Source: a virus (lineage: Duplodnaviria > Heunggongvirae > Uroviricota > Caudoviricetes). Taken from it: DNA of 20,376 nt. Shown here one piece after another: positions 915 to 10,449 of this stretch. Position numbers and translations under genes: made by a program. The DNA is taken from IMG/VR virus record IMGVR_UViG_2877973648_000005, positions 1-20,376 of that record; one strand, 5' to 3'. The notes below the pieces were generated by a model. That model searched no databases and was not told where the DNA came from. It saw nothing but the letters and a program-made list of their open reading frames with translations. Numbering within the stretch: the first letter of the stretch is position 1; the number at the start of each line of letters is the position of its first letter.

Positions 915-1418
915 TTATTGATAGTGTTTTATGTTCAGATAATGCCCGATGACTTTGTCATGCAGCTCCACCGATTTTGAGAACGACAGCGACTTCCGTC
1001 CCAGCCGTGCCAGGTGCTGCCTCAGATTCAGGTTATGCCGCTCAATTCGCTGCGTATATCGCTTGCTGATTACGTGCAGCTTTCCCTTCAGGCGGGATTC
1101 ATACAGCGGCCAGCCATCCGTCATCCATATCACCACGTCAAAGGGTGACAGCAGGCTCATAAGACGCCCCAGCGTCGCCATAGTGCGTTCACCGAATACG
1201 TGCGCAACAACCGTCTTCCGGAGACTGTCATACGCGTAAAACAGCCAGCGCTGGCGCGATTTAGCCCCGACGTATCCCCACTGTTCGTCCATTTCCGCGC
1301 AGACGATGACGTCACTGCCCGGCTGTATGCGCGAGGTTACCGACTGCGGCCTGAGTTTTTTAAGTGACGTAAAATCGTGTTGAGGCCAACGCCCATAATG
1401 CGGGCTGTTGCCCGGCAT
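915..1418 (-). CDS. insB: IS1 InsB frame (expressed as InsAB' by -1 frameshift)
   Basis: 167-aa ORF overlapping insA in the -1 frame, as in canonical IS1. Confidence 0.88.
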
Positions 1419-1612
1419 CCAACGCCATTCATGGCCATATCAATGATTTTCTGGTGCGTACCGGGTTGAGAAGCGGTGTAAGTGAACTGCAGTTGCCATG
1501 TTTTACGGCAGTGAGAGCAGAGATAGCGCTGATGTCCGGCGGTGCTTTTGCCGTTACGCACCACCCCGTCAGTAGCTGAACAGGAGGGACAGCTGATAGA
1601 AACAGAAGCCAC
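1337..1612 (-). CDS. insA: IS1 InsA (transposition repressor / N-terminal part of the InsAB' transposase)
   Basis: 91-aa [46 protein letters not shown]..., the canonical IS1 InsA. Confidence 0.92.
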
Positions 1613-1699
1613 TGGAGCACCTCAAAAACACCATCATACACTAAATCAGTAAGTTGGCAGCATCACCTTCAATCCGCATGAATTTAAAAAAGACAATTT

Positions 1700-1737
1700 T
1701 TAGAAATAAGCCGGATAAAAAAATAGCTTTATCCGGC
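1700..1737 (-). terminator. Rho-independent terminator downstream of corA
   Basis: Dyad GCCGGATAAA / TTTATCCGGC followed on the minus strand by a T-rich tract, immediately after the corA stop. Confidence 0.55.
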
Positions 1738-1744
1738 ACTCATA

Positions 1745-2695
1745 TTACAACCAGTTCTTCCGCTTAAAGTACAGATACGGTGCCAGGCCCGCGAGGATCA
1801 TAAAGATAATCGCGGCAGGGTAGCCGAAGCTCCACTTCAGTTCTGGCATAAACTCAAAGTTCATGCCATAGCTGGAAGCAACGAGCGTCGGCGGCAGGAA
1901 TACCACGGATACCACCGAGAAGATTTTGATGATGCGGTTCTGCTCGATGTTGATAAAACCCATTGCCGCCTGCATCAGGAAGTTCACCTTCTGGAACAGG
2001 GATTCGTTATGCGGCAGCAGGGATTCGATATCTCGCAGGATTTCACGCGCCTGCTCCAGTTGCCCACCCGGTAAACGCGCTTTACGCACCAGGAAGTTGA
2101 GCGCGCGCTGGGTATCCATCAGACACAGGCGAACTTTCCAGCCGATATCTTCCAGTTCCGCCAGAGTGGAGAGCGCCTCGTCGTACTCATCGCCCTGATG
2201 CCCTTCCATAATCACCCGGCTCAACTGCTCCAGGTCGCTATAGATATTTTCAATTTCATCTGCCAACTGTTCGATTTTGGTTTCGAACAGATCCAGCAGC
2301 AACTCGTAGGCGTTACCGTCTACCATCGACTGGCTACGGGCACGCATACGATACAGACGAAAAGCGGGCAGTTCACGCTCACGCAGAGTAAACAGACGAC
2401 CATCACGGATGGTAAATGCCACAGTGGAGTTACCGGCGTGATCTTCCGCATCTTCAAAGAAGAAGAAGGAGTGAATATGCAGGCCGTCGTCGTCTTCAAA
2501 GAAACGTGCCGATGCTTCGATGTCTTCCAGTTCCGGGCGGGTTGCCAGGCTCTGGCCAAGTTCAGATTGTAAGCGCAGTCGCTCGTCGTCGTCCGGTTCG
2601 ACAAGATCAATCCATACTGCATTTACAAGGGGTTGTGACTCTTCGACTTCCAGCCGGGTCAGTCGGTTATTTTCCAGTTGAAATGCGCTCAGCAT
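1745..2695 (-). CDS. corA: CorA magnesium/cobalt transporter (316 aa, GMN motif)
   Basis: Translation [20 protein letters not shown]...[18 protein letters not shown]...KRKNWL matches E. coli CorA. The ORF track's upstream Met adds 5 codons; the native start is taken as 2695. Confidence 0.9.
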
Positions 2696-3064
2696 GACCG
2701 GGACTCCCAATGCTTAAAATATCGGACAGTTCGGTGGGCACACAGAAACAAATTGGGTTTCAGACCATTAAACAGCCTGACTCAGCGCGACGGGAAAAAT
2801 TGAGGTCGCTGACAACCGCTAAGGCTATCAGCAAAAAGGGATAGCCTTAGGAGTTGATCCTGGATGACAGGATAGTGAGCCAGTATCTACTGGGTGTGTC
2901 CAAGGCGAATGTCCTCTTAGAGTGATCGTGCGCGCATGTTACGCCAGCAAAATTTTGCCGTCAACACGCAACAGAACACCACAGAACAATAGTTGAACTT
3001 CGCGCTTTTTGGTACTCGTCAAGGTCGCTAACAGGATAAAAAAATCCCACATCCAGGACCTATA

Positions 3065-3352
3065 ATGGCGCATCAGCTACTCATTGGTAAAGGAATGATC
3101 ACCTTGAATCTCAAACGGATTTTTCTCGCCCTCACCTTACTTCCCTTGTTTGCTGTTGCCGCTGATGATTGCGCACTCTCAGATCCGACGCTGACCGTAC
3201 AGGCGTATACCGTTAATCCTCAAACAGAGCGGGTGAAAATGTACTGGCAAAAAGCCAATGGCGAAGCGTGGGGAACGTTACATGCTCTGCTGGCGGATAT
3301 TAATAGTCAGGGTCAGGTGCAGATGGCGATGAACGGCGGCATCTATGATGAA
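3065..3352 (+). pseudogene. 5' fragment of a signal-peptide protein gene divergent from corA (possibly yigE), truncated by the IS1 junction
   Basis: ORF with a signal-peptide-like N-terminus (MITLNLKRIFLALTLLPLFAVAA) runs directly into the IS1 inverted repeat at 3353; its last 9 codons in the ORF track (GDAANLLI) are encoded by IS1. The yigE assignment is from remembered K-12 gene order only. Confidence 0.5.
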
Positions 3353-3407
3353 GGTGATGCTGCCAACTTACTGATTTAGTGTATGATGGTGTTTTTGAGG
3401 TGCTCCA

Positions 3408-3683
3408 GTGGCTTCTGTTTCTATCAGCTGTCCCTCCTGTTCAGCTACTGACGGGGTGGTGCGTAACGGCAAAAGCACCGCCGGACATCAGCGCTATCTC
3501 TGCTCTCACTGCCGTAAAACATGGCAACTGCAGTTCACTTACACCGCTTCTCAACCCGGTACGCACCAGAAAATCATTGATATGGCCATGAATGGCGTTG
3601 GATGCCGGGCAACAGCCCGCATTATGGGCGTTGGCCTCAACACGATTTTACGTCACTTAAAAAACTCAGGCCGCAGTCGGTAA
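3408..3683 (+). CDS. insA: IS1 InsA
   Basis: Identical 91-aa translation to the InsA at 1337-1612. Confidence 0.92.
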
Positions 3684-4105
3684 CCTCGCGCATACAGCCG
3701 GGCAGTGACGTCATCGTCTGCGCGGAAATGGACGAACAGTGGGGATACGTCGGGGCTAAATCGCGCCAGCGCTGGCTGTTTTACGCGTATGACAGTCTCC
3801 GGAAGACGGTTGTTGCGCACGTATTCGGTGAACGCACTATGGCGACGCTGGGGCGTCTTATGAGCCTGCTGTCACCCTTTGACGTGGTGATATGGATGAC
3901 GGATGGCTGGCCGCTGTATGAATCCCGCCTGAAGGGAAAGCTGCACGTAATCAGCAAGCGATATACGCAGCGAATTGAGCGGCATAACCTGAATCTGAGG
4001 CAGCACCTGGCACGGCTGGGACGGAAGTCGCTGTCGTTCTCAAAATCGGTGGAGCTGCATGACAAAGTCATCGGGCATTATCTGAACATAAAACACTATC
4101 AATAA
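3602..4105 (+). CDS. insB: IS1 InsB frame
   Basis: Identical 167-aa translation to the InsB at 915-1418. Confidence 0.88.
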
Positions 4106-4120
4106 GTTGGAGTCATTACC

Positions 4121-4325
4121 GTTTTTTGGCCCCTTCTATGGTGGCTATAATGTAATCAAACTGGATGATGAGTATAAGTATGCTCTTGTCAGTGGTCCGA
4201 ACAGAGAATACCTATGGATTCTGGCAAGGACCCCAACTATTCCAGATAAAGTAAAAGCAGACTATGTGCGAACCGCTCAAAAGTTGGGATTCAATGTCAA
4301 TGAATTATTATGGGTTAAACAATAA
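4121..4325 (+). pseudogene. 3' fragment of a lipocalin (Blc-like outer-membrane lipoprotein) gene, truncated at the IS1 junction
   Basis: FFGPFYGGYNVIKLDDEYKYALVSGPNREYLWILARTPTIPDKVK...LLWVKQ resembles the C-terminal third of E. coli Blc (FFGPFYGGYNVIALDREYRHALVCGPDRDYLWILSRTP...) but is clearly diverged; there is no start codon outside IS1. Confidence 0.7.
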
Positions 4326-6348: not shown

Positions 6349-6554
6349 GCTTCACCTCCGCAGAGATCAAACGCTGGATGCAAAATATCGCAGGTGCATT
6401 TCTGCATCTGTGAATGGAGAAGAGAGGTTGGATTGTATGTGCGCATAAACGTCCCCGTTTAGCGCAGAAGTCACCGAAGTTGTTCAGGCTCCGATTACTT
6501 AATTATGGCAAGTTGATTATCGCAAATCAAAGGTTTTAATTGTGCTTTATTCTT

Positions 6555-6755
6555 TCAAGCGTTTCCTTCATACCAAAGCCTATAAAGTTTTTCTTCTTCG
6601 TTTGGGTTAATAGGCTCACCATGTTTTAATTTTTCAGTGTACAAAATTGTTGAACAAATCGCGGAAGTTAATCCAGTGATCGCCATCTGCCGCAGATCGG
6701 ATTTTTGTGTCCCCCTCAACAGACGATCTCCCATCCATGTAATAATTGTATCCAT
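6555..6755 (-). CDS. Hypothetical 66-aa protein
   Basis: ORF in AT-rich DNA with a plausible RBS (aagaagg); no recognisable family. Confidence 0.35.
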   Translation of the reverse strand: MDTIITWMGDRLLRGTQKSDLRQMAITGLTSAICSTILYTEKLKHGEPINPNEEEKLYRLWYEGNA

Positions 6756-7347
6756 GCTTCAGCCCTTCTTAGTAAATAGTGTGTAGGGCGACTGAAGGAC
6801 CGAGTTTATGCTTTTTCGCATTGCTTTCAGTTAGTAGACCGGTATAGCACCGGAAACAATCCTACGGCAAATTGGTTGTCTGACCTCTCGGTTTTTCGTG
6901 CATTAACCGATACCCACTACAGTCTCGGCGAAAGCTGCACACCCCCAAGGTGTACTGGTAGCACTCGGCACAGCCTAGCGCGCCACTTTCTTCTCACTAT
7001 CCAGTCTAATTTTATCCCCTAGTCAGACACTCAGATGTAGTGCTCAGCAGCGGCATGCGGGGGAATACAAAAACTCGGACAAAATTGGGCCCTCCTTTTT
7101 GAATCACTCGCGGGGATGTAGTTATTAATACATGGGAAAAGATCTGTTTTCAAATCCAACATTATATGGTTTCAATACCACGGGGTGGCTATGTGTTTCT
7201 CATTATTATTTACAATCTACTGTAATCGCTCCGAACGCAAATGCGTCAATACTCGAATCAACTGATCATCCTGCCACGACTGAAATCTCAAATAGGCCGT
7301 TTCTCAAGTAAGAGATTTTGAATGCATTATTGGCTACTGAAATAAAA

Positions 7348-7378
7348 AACCCAGCGCAAACTGGGTTCATATGAAATT
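7348..7378 (-). terminator. Rho-independent terminator after the secreted-protein gene
   Basis: CCCAG...CTGGG stem followed by TTTTTT on the minus strand, just downstream of the stop at 7385. Confidence 0.5.
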
Positions 7379-7384
7379 TTTTTG

Positions 7385-7879
7385 TCATTTCCAATTGCAA
7401 GACTGTGAAATTTTTTCCACAACCTTATCAATCTCAGACAAGTCAAACTCAACTACTTGCATAGTTGATCCATAAGGTTCAAACCCAAAAATAGCTTTTT
7501 TATGCTTAGCCAAGGTCTTTATAAATTGTATTGGTTGTGGAGCAAATGCAGAATCACCGCCTTCCCCACCTCCCCAAACACTCTTGACCGGCTTTCCGCC
7601 ATCTAACCGCACTGTAATTCTTGGGTTGTCCGAACCCATATAATCATTGAATGATAAATAGGCATCTGTTTTGTTATCACTACAACGCAACACCAGTGAA
7701 GTTGCACGATCAGTACCTGCTTTGTTATATGAATCTGGTGATAAATTAAGAGCCACAAAGTCAGTCTGGTCAGTCATTTTATTTATCTCAGACTTTGTTA
7801 TCCACGGCCCTAACTTCTCTACACCAGCATTTGCTGTAAACGAGGCACTTATAACAAAGGCTAAAATAAATTTTCTCAT
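7385..7879 (-). CDS. Hypothetical secreted protein (164 aa) with Sec signal peptide; moron in the ren/ninA position
   Basis: N-terminus MRKFILAFVISASFTANA is a signal peptide; strong RBS aaggaga; AT-rich codon usage distinct from flanking lambda genes; own terminator. Confidence 0.65.
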   Translation of the reverse strand: MRKFILAFVISASFTANAGVEKLGPWITKSEINKMTDQTDFVALNLSPDSYNKAGTDRATSLVLRCSDNKTDAYLSFNDYMGSDNPRITVRLDGGKPVKSVWGGGEGGDSAFAPQPIQFIKTLAKHKKAIFGFEPYGSTMQVVEFDLSEIDKVVEKISQSCNWK

Positions 7880-8025
7880 AACCCTATCTCCTTGGATTCA
7901 AAGAACTAAATATTATCAAGTCTCTTGCCACTAGAAAACCCACTTTATTTCCAAACTCTGATGGCATTCCTGAAAATCCGCTTCATACTCACTTGCCCCG
8001 CCCTATCATCCTGAGTAGCTAACCG

Positions 8026-8199
8026 TTAAACAAACGTTCGCCAGACCTTACCATCAATGACCAGGATTCCTGCCCGCGTCATTTTTGCCGCAGCCTTATT
8101 TATGCTGGTTAATGTCACACCTGTTGTCGCAGCAACGTCCGGCGCACAGAAGCTCTTGTGCGTCTCCAGATAATGAATAATTGCCTCTTTGCCCGTCAT
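8026..8199 (-). pseudogene. ren: Truncated ren (57 codons; first ~55 residues Ren-like)
   Basis: MTGKEAIIHYLETHKSFCAPDVAATTGVTLTSINKAAAKMTRAGILVIDGKVWRT matches the lambda Ren N-terminus, then diverges to a stop; the ATG overlaps the P stop (ATGA) as in lambda. Confidence 0.65.
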
Positions 8200-8897
8200 A
8201 CAGTTGCTCCTTTCAGTCCGAACTTCGCTTTGATTTCTGCGATCTTCGCCAGAGCCTGAGCCCGGTTAAGTGGTCTACCGCCCATGACAGGAAGTTGTTT
8301 TACTGGTTCAGGTATAGCCTCACCACGGTTAATTCGTGCGGTCATACAGGACAGTTCATCGGCAGCCTTGCGCCGTAATTCCGCGTCAGTCAACGCATTG
8401 GCCCGCATGTTCTGATACAGGTTGGTAACCAGCCAGTAGTGCGCGTTTGATTTCCACGGATAAGACTCTGCATCCGGATACAGCCCGCGCTTCCGGCAAT
8501 ACTCGTAAACCATATCAACCAGCTCGCTGGCGTTTGGCAGCCCGGCGGTAACGGATGCTTCTTCCCGGCACCAGGCGACAAACTGCCCGGGTGATGGCAG
8601 GAATGGTCGATTCTGCCGACGGGCTACGCGCATTCCAGCGTTAACCTGTTCCATTGTGGTGATCCCGTTTTCCCGAAAAGCCAGCACCCACTGGCGGCGG
8701 ATTTCGTTCAGTTCATTCTGGTCACGGTTAGCCAGGCTCGCCGGGAAAGTTGCCAGTAACTGGCTGAACACACCGTTGATGATCTGCGCTACCTGCTGTA
8801 CCTGCGGCTTTTCGTCGTACTGTTCCGGCATGTTGTTGGCGATCCGACGCATCTGCTCACGGTCAAAGTTAACCATCTGTGCGGCGATGTTTTTCAT
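8196..8897 (-). CDS. P: Replication protein P (DnaB helicase loader)
   Basis: 233-aa translation nearly identical to lambda P (MKNIAAQMVNFDREQMRRIANNMPEQYDEKPQVQQ...). Confidence 0.95.
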   Translation of the reverse strand: MKNIAAQMVNFDREQMRRIANNMPEQYDEKPQVQQVAQIINGVFSQLLATFPASLANRDQNELNEIRRQWVLAFRENGITTMEQVNAGMRVARRQNRPFLPSPGQFVAWCREEASVTAGLPNASELVDMVYEYCRKRGLYPDAESYPWKSNAHYWLVTNLYQNMRANALTDAELRRKAADELSCMTARINRGEAIPEPVKQLPVMGGRPLNRAQALAKIAEIKAKFGLKGATV

Positions 8898-9913
8898 AAA
8901 TCCACCCCGTAAATCCAGTCAGTGTTTGTCAGGTCGAGTTTTGGTTTGCTGGCTATCATGCCTGCCTGTTGCTTGTTACGGTTGATTTCGAGTTGGGTCC
9001 ACTTGTCGCGGAGTTTGGCCGGACTTAGCACGTTACCGGACCAGAAGTTGTCCTGGCATGCCCAGCGGAAAAGCACGCACATGTCGCGGTGGTTACGTCC
9101 GTCACGTTCACGCATCAGGCGGATATCGTTAGCCCACCCTGCAAAATTCGGTTTTCTGGCTGATGGTGCGATGGTCTTCACCATGTCAAACATCCACTCT
9201 GCGGCGGTCAGGTCTTCTGCTGTCCCCCACTTGCTGCCGCTCTGAATTGCAGCATCTGGTTTCACCACAGGAAGATCGTTTTCTGGTTGGTCAGAGGATT
9301 CGCCAGAATTCTCGGACGAAAAAGGTTTTATATTGTCTTTTGTTAGTTTGTCTTTTGTGTTTACCTGATTCGGGTAAACGCCTTTACCTGATTTGGGTAA
9401 ACTTTTCTTACCTGATTCAGGTAAATTTACCTCTTTCAGGTAAACTTTATTTTTCTTACCTGATTCGGGTAATGTTGACCATTCACTGACCACATTATTA
9501 ATACCGATATTCCGCCCGCTCTGAATCAAAATCCCACGCTTTACCAGAACACTTTTTGCAGCAGAACACTTGTGCGGTAATATCCCGGTCAATCCGGACA
9601 GTTGCTCGTTGCTCACCCAATCCAGTTTTTTATTAAAGCCATATGTTTTGCGCATGACAGCCAGGAAGACCAGAAGCTGGTGCTGTGTTAATCCGGCCAG
9701 CATCACAGCTTCCAGCAACTCATTTGCAATGCGCGTATAACCATCATCGAGATCTGCCACGCGCGGCTCCTTTTGTGCCGCATCCGGCACTGGAAAATTG
9801 AATATCTCAGCAGTGTTTGCCATAATTCCTCCCGCAATGAGTGTGTTACGATTTGCACCTGAAAGTCGGTTCTGTTCCAGCAGACCGGCTTTCGCCATTT
9901 CTGAACCTGTCAT
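8894..9913 (-). CDS. O: Replication initiator O-like protein (iteron-binding), contains ori
   Basis: Located immediately upstream of and overlapping P; contains internal iteron array plus AT-rich tract, the lambda O/ori architecture. The N-terminal domain differs from lambda O. Confidence 0.85.
   Translation of the reverse strand: MTGSEMAKAGLLEQNRLSGANRNTLIAGGIMANTAEIFNFPVPDAAQKEPRVADLDDGYTRIANELLEAVMLAGLTQHQLLVFLAVMRKTYGFNKKLDWVSNEQLSGLTGILPHKCSAAKSVLVKRGILIQSGRNIGINNVVSEWSTLPESGKKNKVYLKEVNLPESGKKSLPKSGKGVYPNQVNTKDKLTKDNIKPFSSENSGESSDQPENDLPVVKPDAAIQSGSKWGTAEDLTAAEWMFDMVKTIAPSARKPNFAGWANDIRLMRERDGRNHRDMCVLFRWACQDNFWSGNVLSPAKLRDKWTQLEINRNKQQAGMIASKPKLDLTNTDWIYGVDL
9361..9474. repeat. Replication origin iterons: five ~19-bp direct repeats TTACCTGATTCGGGTAAAC, each an internal palindrome
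   Basis: Repeats at 9361-9379, 9384-9402, 9408-9426, 9427-9445 and 9456-9474 with 0-10 bp spacing, inside the O reading frame. Confidence 0.8.
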
Positions 9914-10449
9914 ATCGCCCCCAGCATGGTAGTAACCATCGCCATCAATGGACCAGCCAGATCTGGGTCCACACGAAACATCGATACAATACCTTCACTA
10001 ATTTCCTTCAGTTTCTGGTGGCGTGGTGCGTTAAGAATGACAGCCTGTTTTGCCTCACTGAGTTCCTTTTCCATTTCAGCCAACCTGGCCATGAAGCTAT
10101 CCTGCTCAACCAGGTAACCGCGATATTCCAGCGGTAGTACCGCCAGAATTGCCGGGGTCAGTTCACGCACGTTATTTCGGTATTTTTCAGAATCGAATTT
10201 GTTATCGAGGAAGCGGAACAGCTTCTGGCGTGCACGGCTGACATCATCAGGGAAATCGATGGTGCCGCCGCCCTGCTCCCGATACTCATTCACAATGAGT
10301 GTGGCAACGACATCCTGATTATCTACAGCCGACCAGGCGCGGACGGCATCACGGATTTTTTCGTGGCCTGGCACCTGTTTTGTTTGAGAACGATTTATCA
10401 CCGCAGTCGGGCTAAATCCGCTAGTCTGTTGGTATGGAAGTGGTTGCAT
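9910..10449 (-). CDS. YdaT-like protein in the cII position (179 aa)
   Basis: Sits between cro and O with the stop overlapping the O start; the Cro-like + larger-protein pair resembles Rac ydaS-ydaT. Assignment is by synteny and general resemblance, not a firm match. Confidence 0.5.
   Translation of the reverse strand: MQPLPYQQTSGFSPTAVINRSQTKQVPGHEKIRDAVRAWSAVDNQDVVATLIVNEYREQGGGTIDFPDDVSRARQKLFRFLDNKFDSEKYRNNVRELTPAILAVLPLEYRGYLVEQDSFMARLAEMEKELSEAKQAVILNAPRHQKLKEISEGIVSMFRVDPDLAGPLMAMVTTMLGAI

Follow-up and report, generated by a model that had tools for sequence, protein, structure and literature searches.

The window analysed here is a 20,376-nt stretch of viral DNA (Caudoviricetes; IMG/VR virus record IMGVR_UViG_2877973648_000005, positions 1 to 20,376), and the element in question is a 164-aa gene together with the truncated copy of the phage gene ren that precedes it. 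All coordinates are window positions, and P, ren, the ren remnant, the 164-aa gene, and its signals are all located on the minus strand. The locus begins with the replication gene P (8196-8897, 233 aa), which was identified using the Pfam Phage_lambda_P model (208 bits) and is 91% identical to lambda at the nucleotide level. The stop codon of P overlaps the ATG of ren as ATGA, the same as in lambda and consistent with translational coupling of the two genes, which agrees with a preliminary description of the locus made from the sequence alone. The truncated ren open reading frame (ORF) occupies 8026-8199 (57 codons, TAA at 8028-8026), and 146 nt separate it from the 164-codon ORF at 7385-7879. 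The first 18 residues of this second ORF, encoded at 7826-7879, form a predicted signal peptide, and the remaining ~146 aa form a mature domain with a VasI/IalB-like fold.

Signals were found on both sides of the 164-aa gene. A Shine-Dalgarno sequence (AAGGAG, 7888-7893) is located 8 nt 5' of the ATG, and a candidate extended -10 element (TGaTAATAT, 7910-7918) was read further upstream and assessed by comparative conservation. Downstream, a terminator scan placed an intrinsic terminator at 7337-7368, with a hairpin (GAACCCAG...CTGGGTT) made up of a 9-bp stem and followed by a T-run, the called stem and T-run spanning 7368-7347. An AT-rich 164-aa gene with a signal peptide, a strong ribosome binding site, and a terminator of its own had been proposed beforehand, and each of these parts was located as proposed.

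The truncated ren ORF keeps the N-terminal winged-helix part of lambda Ren and was matched by both phrog_7054 (a 57-aa profile) and the Ren-like phrog_142. Using tblastn with lambda Ren, residues 1-55 were aligned upstream of the stop, and the alignment continued in frame across the TAA to at least residue 77 (69% identity over 77 residues, including 22 beyond the TAA; ...VWRTFV, the stop, and then RLATQDDRAGQVSMKRIFR in the window vs ...VWRTVYYRFATREEREGKMSTNLVFK in lambda). A five-way DNA alignment placed a step in identity at codon 55. Nucleotides 1-165 of ren are 87-89% identical to the lambda and DLP12-like genes, whereas nucleotides 166-266 are 62-63% identical to those same two genes, which are 95% identical to each other over that interval. 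This distal part, a divergent and degenerate ren 3' remnant (7934-8034), carries a TAC to TAA change at codon 58 and a later 1-nt deletion, and recognisable ren ends at about nucleotide 246-266 of 291, so that the last 25-45 nt are missing. Given the TAA, the deletion, and the missing end, no full-length (96-aa) Ren reading frame is present at this locus, and the NCBI annotation pipeline independently lists 7931-8199 as a pseudogene ("protein ren, frameshifted; internal stop"). The possibility that Ren naturally stops at 57 aa in related phages was rejected, since homology continues in frame past the stop and the allele is confined to the lineage that bears the 164-aa gene.

These results support the earlier observation that Ren is conserved for about 55 residues and then runs into an early stop at 8026. 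The accompanying claim, that the 3' half of ren had been replaced, holds for the position of the break but not for what lies beyond it, which is degenerate ren for ~100 nt past the TAA and not unrelated DNA. In lambda, ren directly precedes a hairpin (GGCCTGC...GCAGGCC with a T-run), which we take to be tR2, and then ninB. That hairpin is absent at the window locus, and the terminator downstream of the 164-aa gene stands in its place. The two loci therefore share the P-ren overlap, the conserved Ren N-terminus, and a terminator after the unit, and they differ in the length of the ren ORF, the degenerate distal part, and the identity of that terminator.

The boundaries of the inserted DNA were determined by blastn. 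Homology to lambda and to a DLP12-like locus (L004) stopped at 7955 in both cases, two other prophages that carry the gene (L003 and L012) diverged at 7307, and homology to L004 resumed at 7305. This delimits a single-gene cassette of ~650 bp (7307-7954) made up of leader, ORF, and terminator. The comparison with the ren junctions of lambda and the DLP12-like prophage, which the preliminary description had recommended, thus returned sharp cassette boundaries as well as a cargo gap at the same place in the DLP12-like prophage. In that DLP12-like prophage the same region holds a frameshifted ren, then emrE-ylcJ-ybcK, and then the module found at 7305-6566 of the window; the cargo is different, and the ren 3' end is lambda-like (95% identical) rather than the divergent remnant. 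The GC content of the 164-aa ORF is ~38-39% (33-44% across 7100-7999), as compared to 50-58% for P. The cassette consequently presents as extra DNA between otherwise adjacent genes, with its own terminator and a deviating base composition, which are among the features by which a moron is recognised under the Juhala/Hendrix definition.

The gap between ren and ylcH was also observed to be a hot spot for cargo (window 6440-7305; 3597-4738 in L004), and in the DLP12-like prophage it holds emrE-ylcJ-ybcK along with a P22AR C-terminal gene. A 66-aa gene within the gap (6555-6755, phrog_8527) belongs to a separate module that occurs in ~155 genomes, with or without the VasI-like gene.

The 164-aa gene was detected in 84 of 5,426 complete E. 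coli genomes, 82 of which hold 80% or more of its length, while the flanking P, ren, and ybcN sequences matched in ~3,600. Together with the lambda order, in which no such gene is found between ren and ninB, these counts bear out the earlier view that this is not a typical nin gene. About 80 of the 84 genomes have an intact copy, and two IS1 insertions and one partial copy were seen among the genomes listed. When the divergent ren remnant was searched on its own (7925-8036), it was recovered from 81 of the same 5,426 genomes and from one phage record. All 12 distinct ren alleles that adjoin the gene end at the same TAA (codon 58) despite having recombinant 5' parts. The degenerate ren tail and the 164-aa gene are inherited jointly. 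Because their distributions match and the TAA is shared by all 12 alleles, the imported unit consists of the degenerate ren tail plus the cargo gene, and the alignments place its junction with the resident ren at about codon 55. One record counted among plasmids (NZ_CP174001.1, E. coli SZQ1, 43,337 bp) carries the whole P to ybcN block, including truncated ren and the gene, at ~34.8-36.8 kb with 99.8-100% identity, and may represent a lambdoid phage genome that is circularised or extrachromosomal.

Homologues at 80 IMG/VR loci were compared, of which 40 are at least 98% identical (E. coli-type) and 40 are 55-81% identical. All 40 E. coli-type copies are located 150 nt beyond a truncated ren. 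The 55-81% identical copies, drawn from Klebsiella and Salmonella prophage regions as well as from viral contigs of metagenomes, occupy a different slot. At 39 of 39 informative loci they are flanked by a tail assembly chaperone gene (DUF6246) and the tape-measure gene, with which they share a strand; the remaining locus had no marker matches. Identity to the reference chaperone and tape-measure proteins varies among these loci between 26% and 98%. A homologue that is 25% identical was found in the same kind of slot in Pasteurella phage Pmp14, and in Brucella phage BiPBO1 the homologue gp67 is encoded immediately downstream of the repressor gp68 (L016, 3824-4429). A search of GTDB species-representative genomes using narrow motifs added three loci. 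The cassette has moved between phage slots, and in all contexts its ORF remains AT-rich (GC 38-45%) relative to the flanks (46-55%). At one locus (L015, 4235-5465), situated at the margin of a record of a P2-like prophage that also contains the host genes flk and fabB, a zinc-ribbon gene precedes the gene for a 297-aa VasI-like protein.

The slot held by the 55-81% identical relatives is that of HK97 gene 15, the first-named moron, which likewise lies between a chaperone and the tape-measure gene. The HK97 gene 15 moron is reportedly the subject of Juhala 2000 and Cumby 2012. Like the cassette, the gene 15 moron comprises one small gene that has a terminator to itself, is inserted in an operon, and encodes an envelope-targeted product. 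The two differ in their products (a 62-aa YebO-like inner-membrane protein vs a soluble periplasmic domain of ~146 aa, without sequence similarity) and in that gene 15 is found in the tail operon whereas the E. coli cassette is found in the early (ren/nin) region.

In 32 of 33 distinct homologue leaders, a TAnnnT hexamer (TAGGAT in 25) lies 34-43 nt 5' of the start codon, and this hexamer is often preceded by TGn and by a TTG-containing hexamer 16-17 nt upstream. From this comparative conservation we infer a promoter belonging to the 164-aa gene itself. The Klebsiella and Salmonella cassettes also keep a terminator hairpin, the stem of which shows compensatory changes. Given that the cassette is compact, has its own terminator, deviates in GC content, contains a conserved -10-like element, and occupies a second slot in other phages, its classification as a moron is well supported. 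No RNA family was detected using Rfam, either at the gathering threshold across the whole window or at E ≤ 1 within 7250-8250.

Two variants of the cassette signals were observed. In Klebsiella cassettes (L095 and L096 at ~7940-8000, among others) the leader contains an inverted repeat (TTAGGAT...ATCCTAA), which in a read-through RNA would pair the -10-like region with the neighbourhood of the start codon and could therefore tell promoter-initiated from read-through mRNA. In a subclade encoding 171-aa homologues (L018 and L084-L090), the terminator is replaced by a small ORF starting MKKYIFLIFILVLAVGGF (~8511-8570), apparently encoding a second small protein, exported or in the membrane, that is coupled to the gene.

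The signal peptide of the 164-aa protein (MRKFILAFVISASFTANA, with G as the next residue) has a basic n-region, a hydrophobic core, A-x-A at -3/-1, and no lipobox Cys, and this architecture was kept in 24 of 24 close homologues. Most of residues 1-17 fell below a pLDDT of 50 in the AlphaFold model. The product is predicted to be periplasmic by way of this signal peptidase I signal, so that the earlier term "secreted" goes too far.

The protein was matched end to end by phrog_1848 (236 bits), a family annotated as function unknown, and passed the Pfam model PF11319 ("VasI") marginally (26.7 bits vs a gathering cut-off of 26.5). A profile built from its clade retrieved 3,817 cluster representatives, and 90 of 96 sampled were matched by PF11319. 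In some of these relatives the domain is joined to cytochrome c, Sel1/TPR, TonB_C, or zinc-ribbon domains, and because of these fusions it looks like a general periplasmic module. Two cysteines (C66 and C161) do not vary at all, suggesting that a disulfide forms in the periplasm. The fold resembles those of Bartonella IalB (PDB 3DTD) and of a flagellar LPHT-ring component (PDB 8Z5N, which we take to be MotY) at ~9-11% sequence identity, and the protein was not matched by Pfam IalB; the functions of these two relatives are not transferable to it. Searching the PDB with a 24-sequence profile returned no match, and a BFVD fold search returned weak matches alone, to unnamed proteins of T4-like phages. 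Taken together, these results place the 164-aa protein among the distant homologues of VasI/TagO (PF11319), with a fold like that of IalB. A pseudogene or chance ORF was rejected based upon dN/dS values of 0.09-0.11 against 75-81% identical homologues, indicating strong purifying selection, and upon full-length homologues at 55-81% identity. The literature was searched using DUF3121, PF11319, the RefSeq accession, and TagO with prophage, and no study of the phage protein was found.

Over its full 20.4 kb, the window has the same sequence as the ybhB-ybhC interval of E. coli strain 1218KP, which is where lambda attaches. The interval contains the remnant of a lambdoid prophage with int/xis, exo-bet-gam, a repressor module, a YdaT-like gene where lambda has cII, O, P, and ren, followed by a nin region of the DLP12 type (ylcH-like, ybcN, ninE, ybcO, rusA, and ylcG) and then Q. 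Genes from int through Q are retained, while the lysis and morphogenesis genes are all lost and an IS1-corA-ysgD-IS1 block has been substituted for them, for which reasons the prophage is called defective, as it had been previously. The arrangement is not confined to a defective prophage, as the same ren tail and gene block is carried by the deposited 47.9-kb genome of phage IdasGreatGrand. Other observations were made in the window. The composite that took the place of the whole late region (915-4325) has two IS1A copies around corA, ysgD, and a partial glycosidase gene, and it interrupts a lipocalin-family gene that is annotated without its N-terminus. The gene at the lambda cII position (9910-10449, minus strand) encodes a 179-aa protein annotated with a toxin YdaT domain, and O is a 339-aa variant common to phage IdasGreatGrand.

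The explanation that we favour treats 7307-8034 as a horizontally acquired block in the pR operon, in which a degenerate, divergent ren 3' end is followed by a classic moron. The product would be exported by Sec, cleaved after Ala18, and folded in the periplasm into a VasI/IalB-type domain with a disulfide between C66 and C161. In the repressed prophage, transcription of the gene would start at a promoter of its own, and in lytic growth read-through from pR would reach it. The protein would act on the cell envelope of the lysogen, where, by analogy with HK97 gp15, it might bind in the periplasm either a machine that spans the envelope or the tail of an incoming phage. As a complete account, from acquired block through to an envelope role, this is held at slightly better than even confidence.

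Within this envelope frame, superinfection exclusion or envelope protection is suggested tentatively and with low confidence. HK97 gp15 is an inner-membrane superinfection-exclusion protein (PMC3594210), and exclusion is favoured because of the recurrent gp15 slot beside the tape-measure gene and the Brucella homologue behind a repressor gene. Several results weigh against the favoured explanation or this part of it. A generic sigma-70 consensus scan upstream of the 164-aa gene called no promoter, and the -35 region of the candidate promoter is poor in the E. coli context. The protein was matched by none of the PADLOC defence models; among Pfam and NCBIfam models VasI alone was returned, and neither in sequence nor in size is there similarity to gp15 or other known exclusion proteins, a class that includes P22 SieA, Cor, and Llp. 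The chaperone/tape-measure slot also carries antirepressor-type cargo, so that position amounts to guilt by association. The sole experiments on the domain family, performed on VCA0118 (VasI/TagO) of V. cholerae, concern killing dependent on a type VI secretion system (T6SS) and not phage resistance. A 2026 review regards the function of TagO/VasI as unknown, and IalB-domain proteins are described elsewhere as envelope proteins of unknown mechanism. The broader proposal that phrog_1848 is a widespread class of phage periplasmic envelope guards, acting through exclusion at the tape-measure/DNA-entry step or through protection against contractile injection systems (T6SS), is doubtful.

The alternative that survives best is that the gene is a lysogenic-conversion factor for fitness or virulence (adhesion, serum resistance, or resistance to grazing), comparable to lambda Bor/Lom or Bartonella IalB and not directed against phages. 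It is consistent with the VCA0118 mutant being avirulent to amoebae and with the gene being intact in a remnant without any late genes. Its link to IalB is nevertheless one of fold-level similarity, and the protein has no anchor or surface-display signal (no lipobox, no beta-barrel). No pathotype enrichment is visible either, as the hosts and sources include human, cattle, frog, crayfish, water, and salad. We regard this alternative as unlikely.

A second alternative takes the domain assignment at face value, with the protein either aiding the host T6SS or shielding the lysogen envelope from the T6SS of neighbouring cells. The match to PF11319 is what this view starts from, and RefSeq names the gene product "T6SS-associated protein TagO", presumably because PF11319 was marginally passed. 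Canonical E. coli VasI (EDL933_RS01165), which is located between tssH and tssA, aligns with the phage protein at both cysteines and at the C-terminal CxW motif, and the two share export and the PF11319 domain. VCA0118 is itself exported and aids T6SS-dependent killing, while being dispensable for Hcp or VgrG secretion. Against this, the identity to canonical VasI is 18% (E = 0.028), and the phage protein is shorter, lacking an N-terminal extension of ~60-80 residues. On the T6SS VasI equivalog model TIGR03360 it scored 14.4 bits, far below the cut-off of 124.2, whereas canonical VasI scored 257.4. No T6SS genes were found nearby in the window or in the 80+ related loci, all of which are phage or prophage contexts, and the domain fusions point to a general periplasmic module rather than to a T6SS component. 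The homology and structure search recommended in the preliminary description has thus assigned the protein to a family, but not to the bona fide VasI of the T6SS, and this alternative appears decidedly unlikely. A third alternative, an accessory gene of the lytic cycle, expressed from pR or the late operon alone and idle in the lysogen, with the conserved leader serving as a translational or processing signal and not as a promoter, is improbable: it draws on the co-orientation of the gene with the surrounding operon at every locus, the empty promoter scan, the Klebsiella leader in which the -10-like hexamer is complementary to the start-codon neighbourhood, and the weak structural relatives in lytic T4-like phages, but a dedicated terminator directly after the gene and an AT-richness typical of independently expressed morons, retention of the intact gene in remnants incapable of lytic growth, and the Brucella homologue directly behind a repressor gene all argue against it.

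Read as a moron, the feature belongs to a well-known type, in which a phage moron carries cargo for export, and the 164-aa gene is a real and well-conserved phage gene that is already catalogued in databases as a family of unknown function. The ren gene next to it shows that mosaic joints can fall within genes and leave stable truncated ORFs, to the extent that the 57-aa Ren has a PHROG of its own though it is a pseudogene remnant. Because the gene occurs exclusively in phages and prophages and its product scores far below the cut-off of the T6SS VasI equivalog model, the label "T6SS-associated protein TagO" probably misdirects surveys of T6SS and virulence genes in E. coli, Klebsiella, and Salmonella. 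A conserved exported protein that prophages retain past the loss of growth is, on those grounds, a good candidate for a benefit to the lysogen. The most useful outputs of this analysis are the annotation caveat, that the gene does not belong to the T6SS, and a concrete candidate, open to testing, for a prophage function that acts on the envelope. A phenotype, if found, would offer the first way into what the VasI/IalB fold does, and if the protein does guard the envelope, its target would reveal the molecular role of VasI/TagO and IalB-fold proteins.
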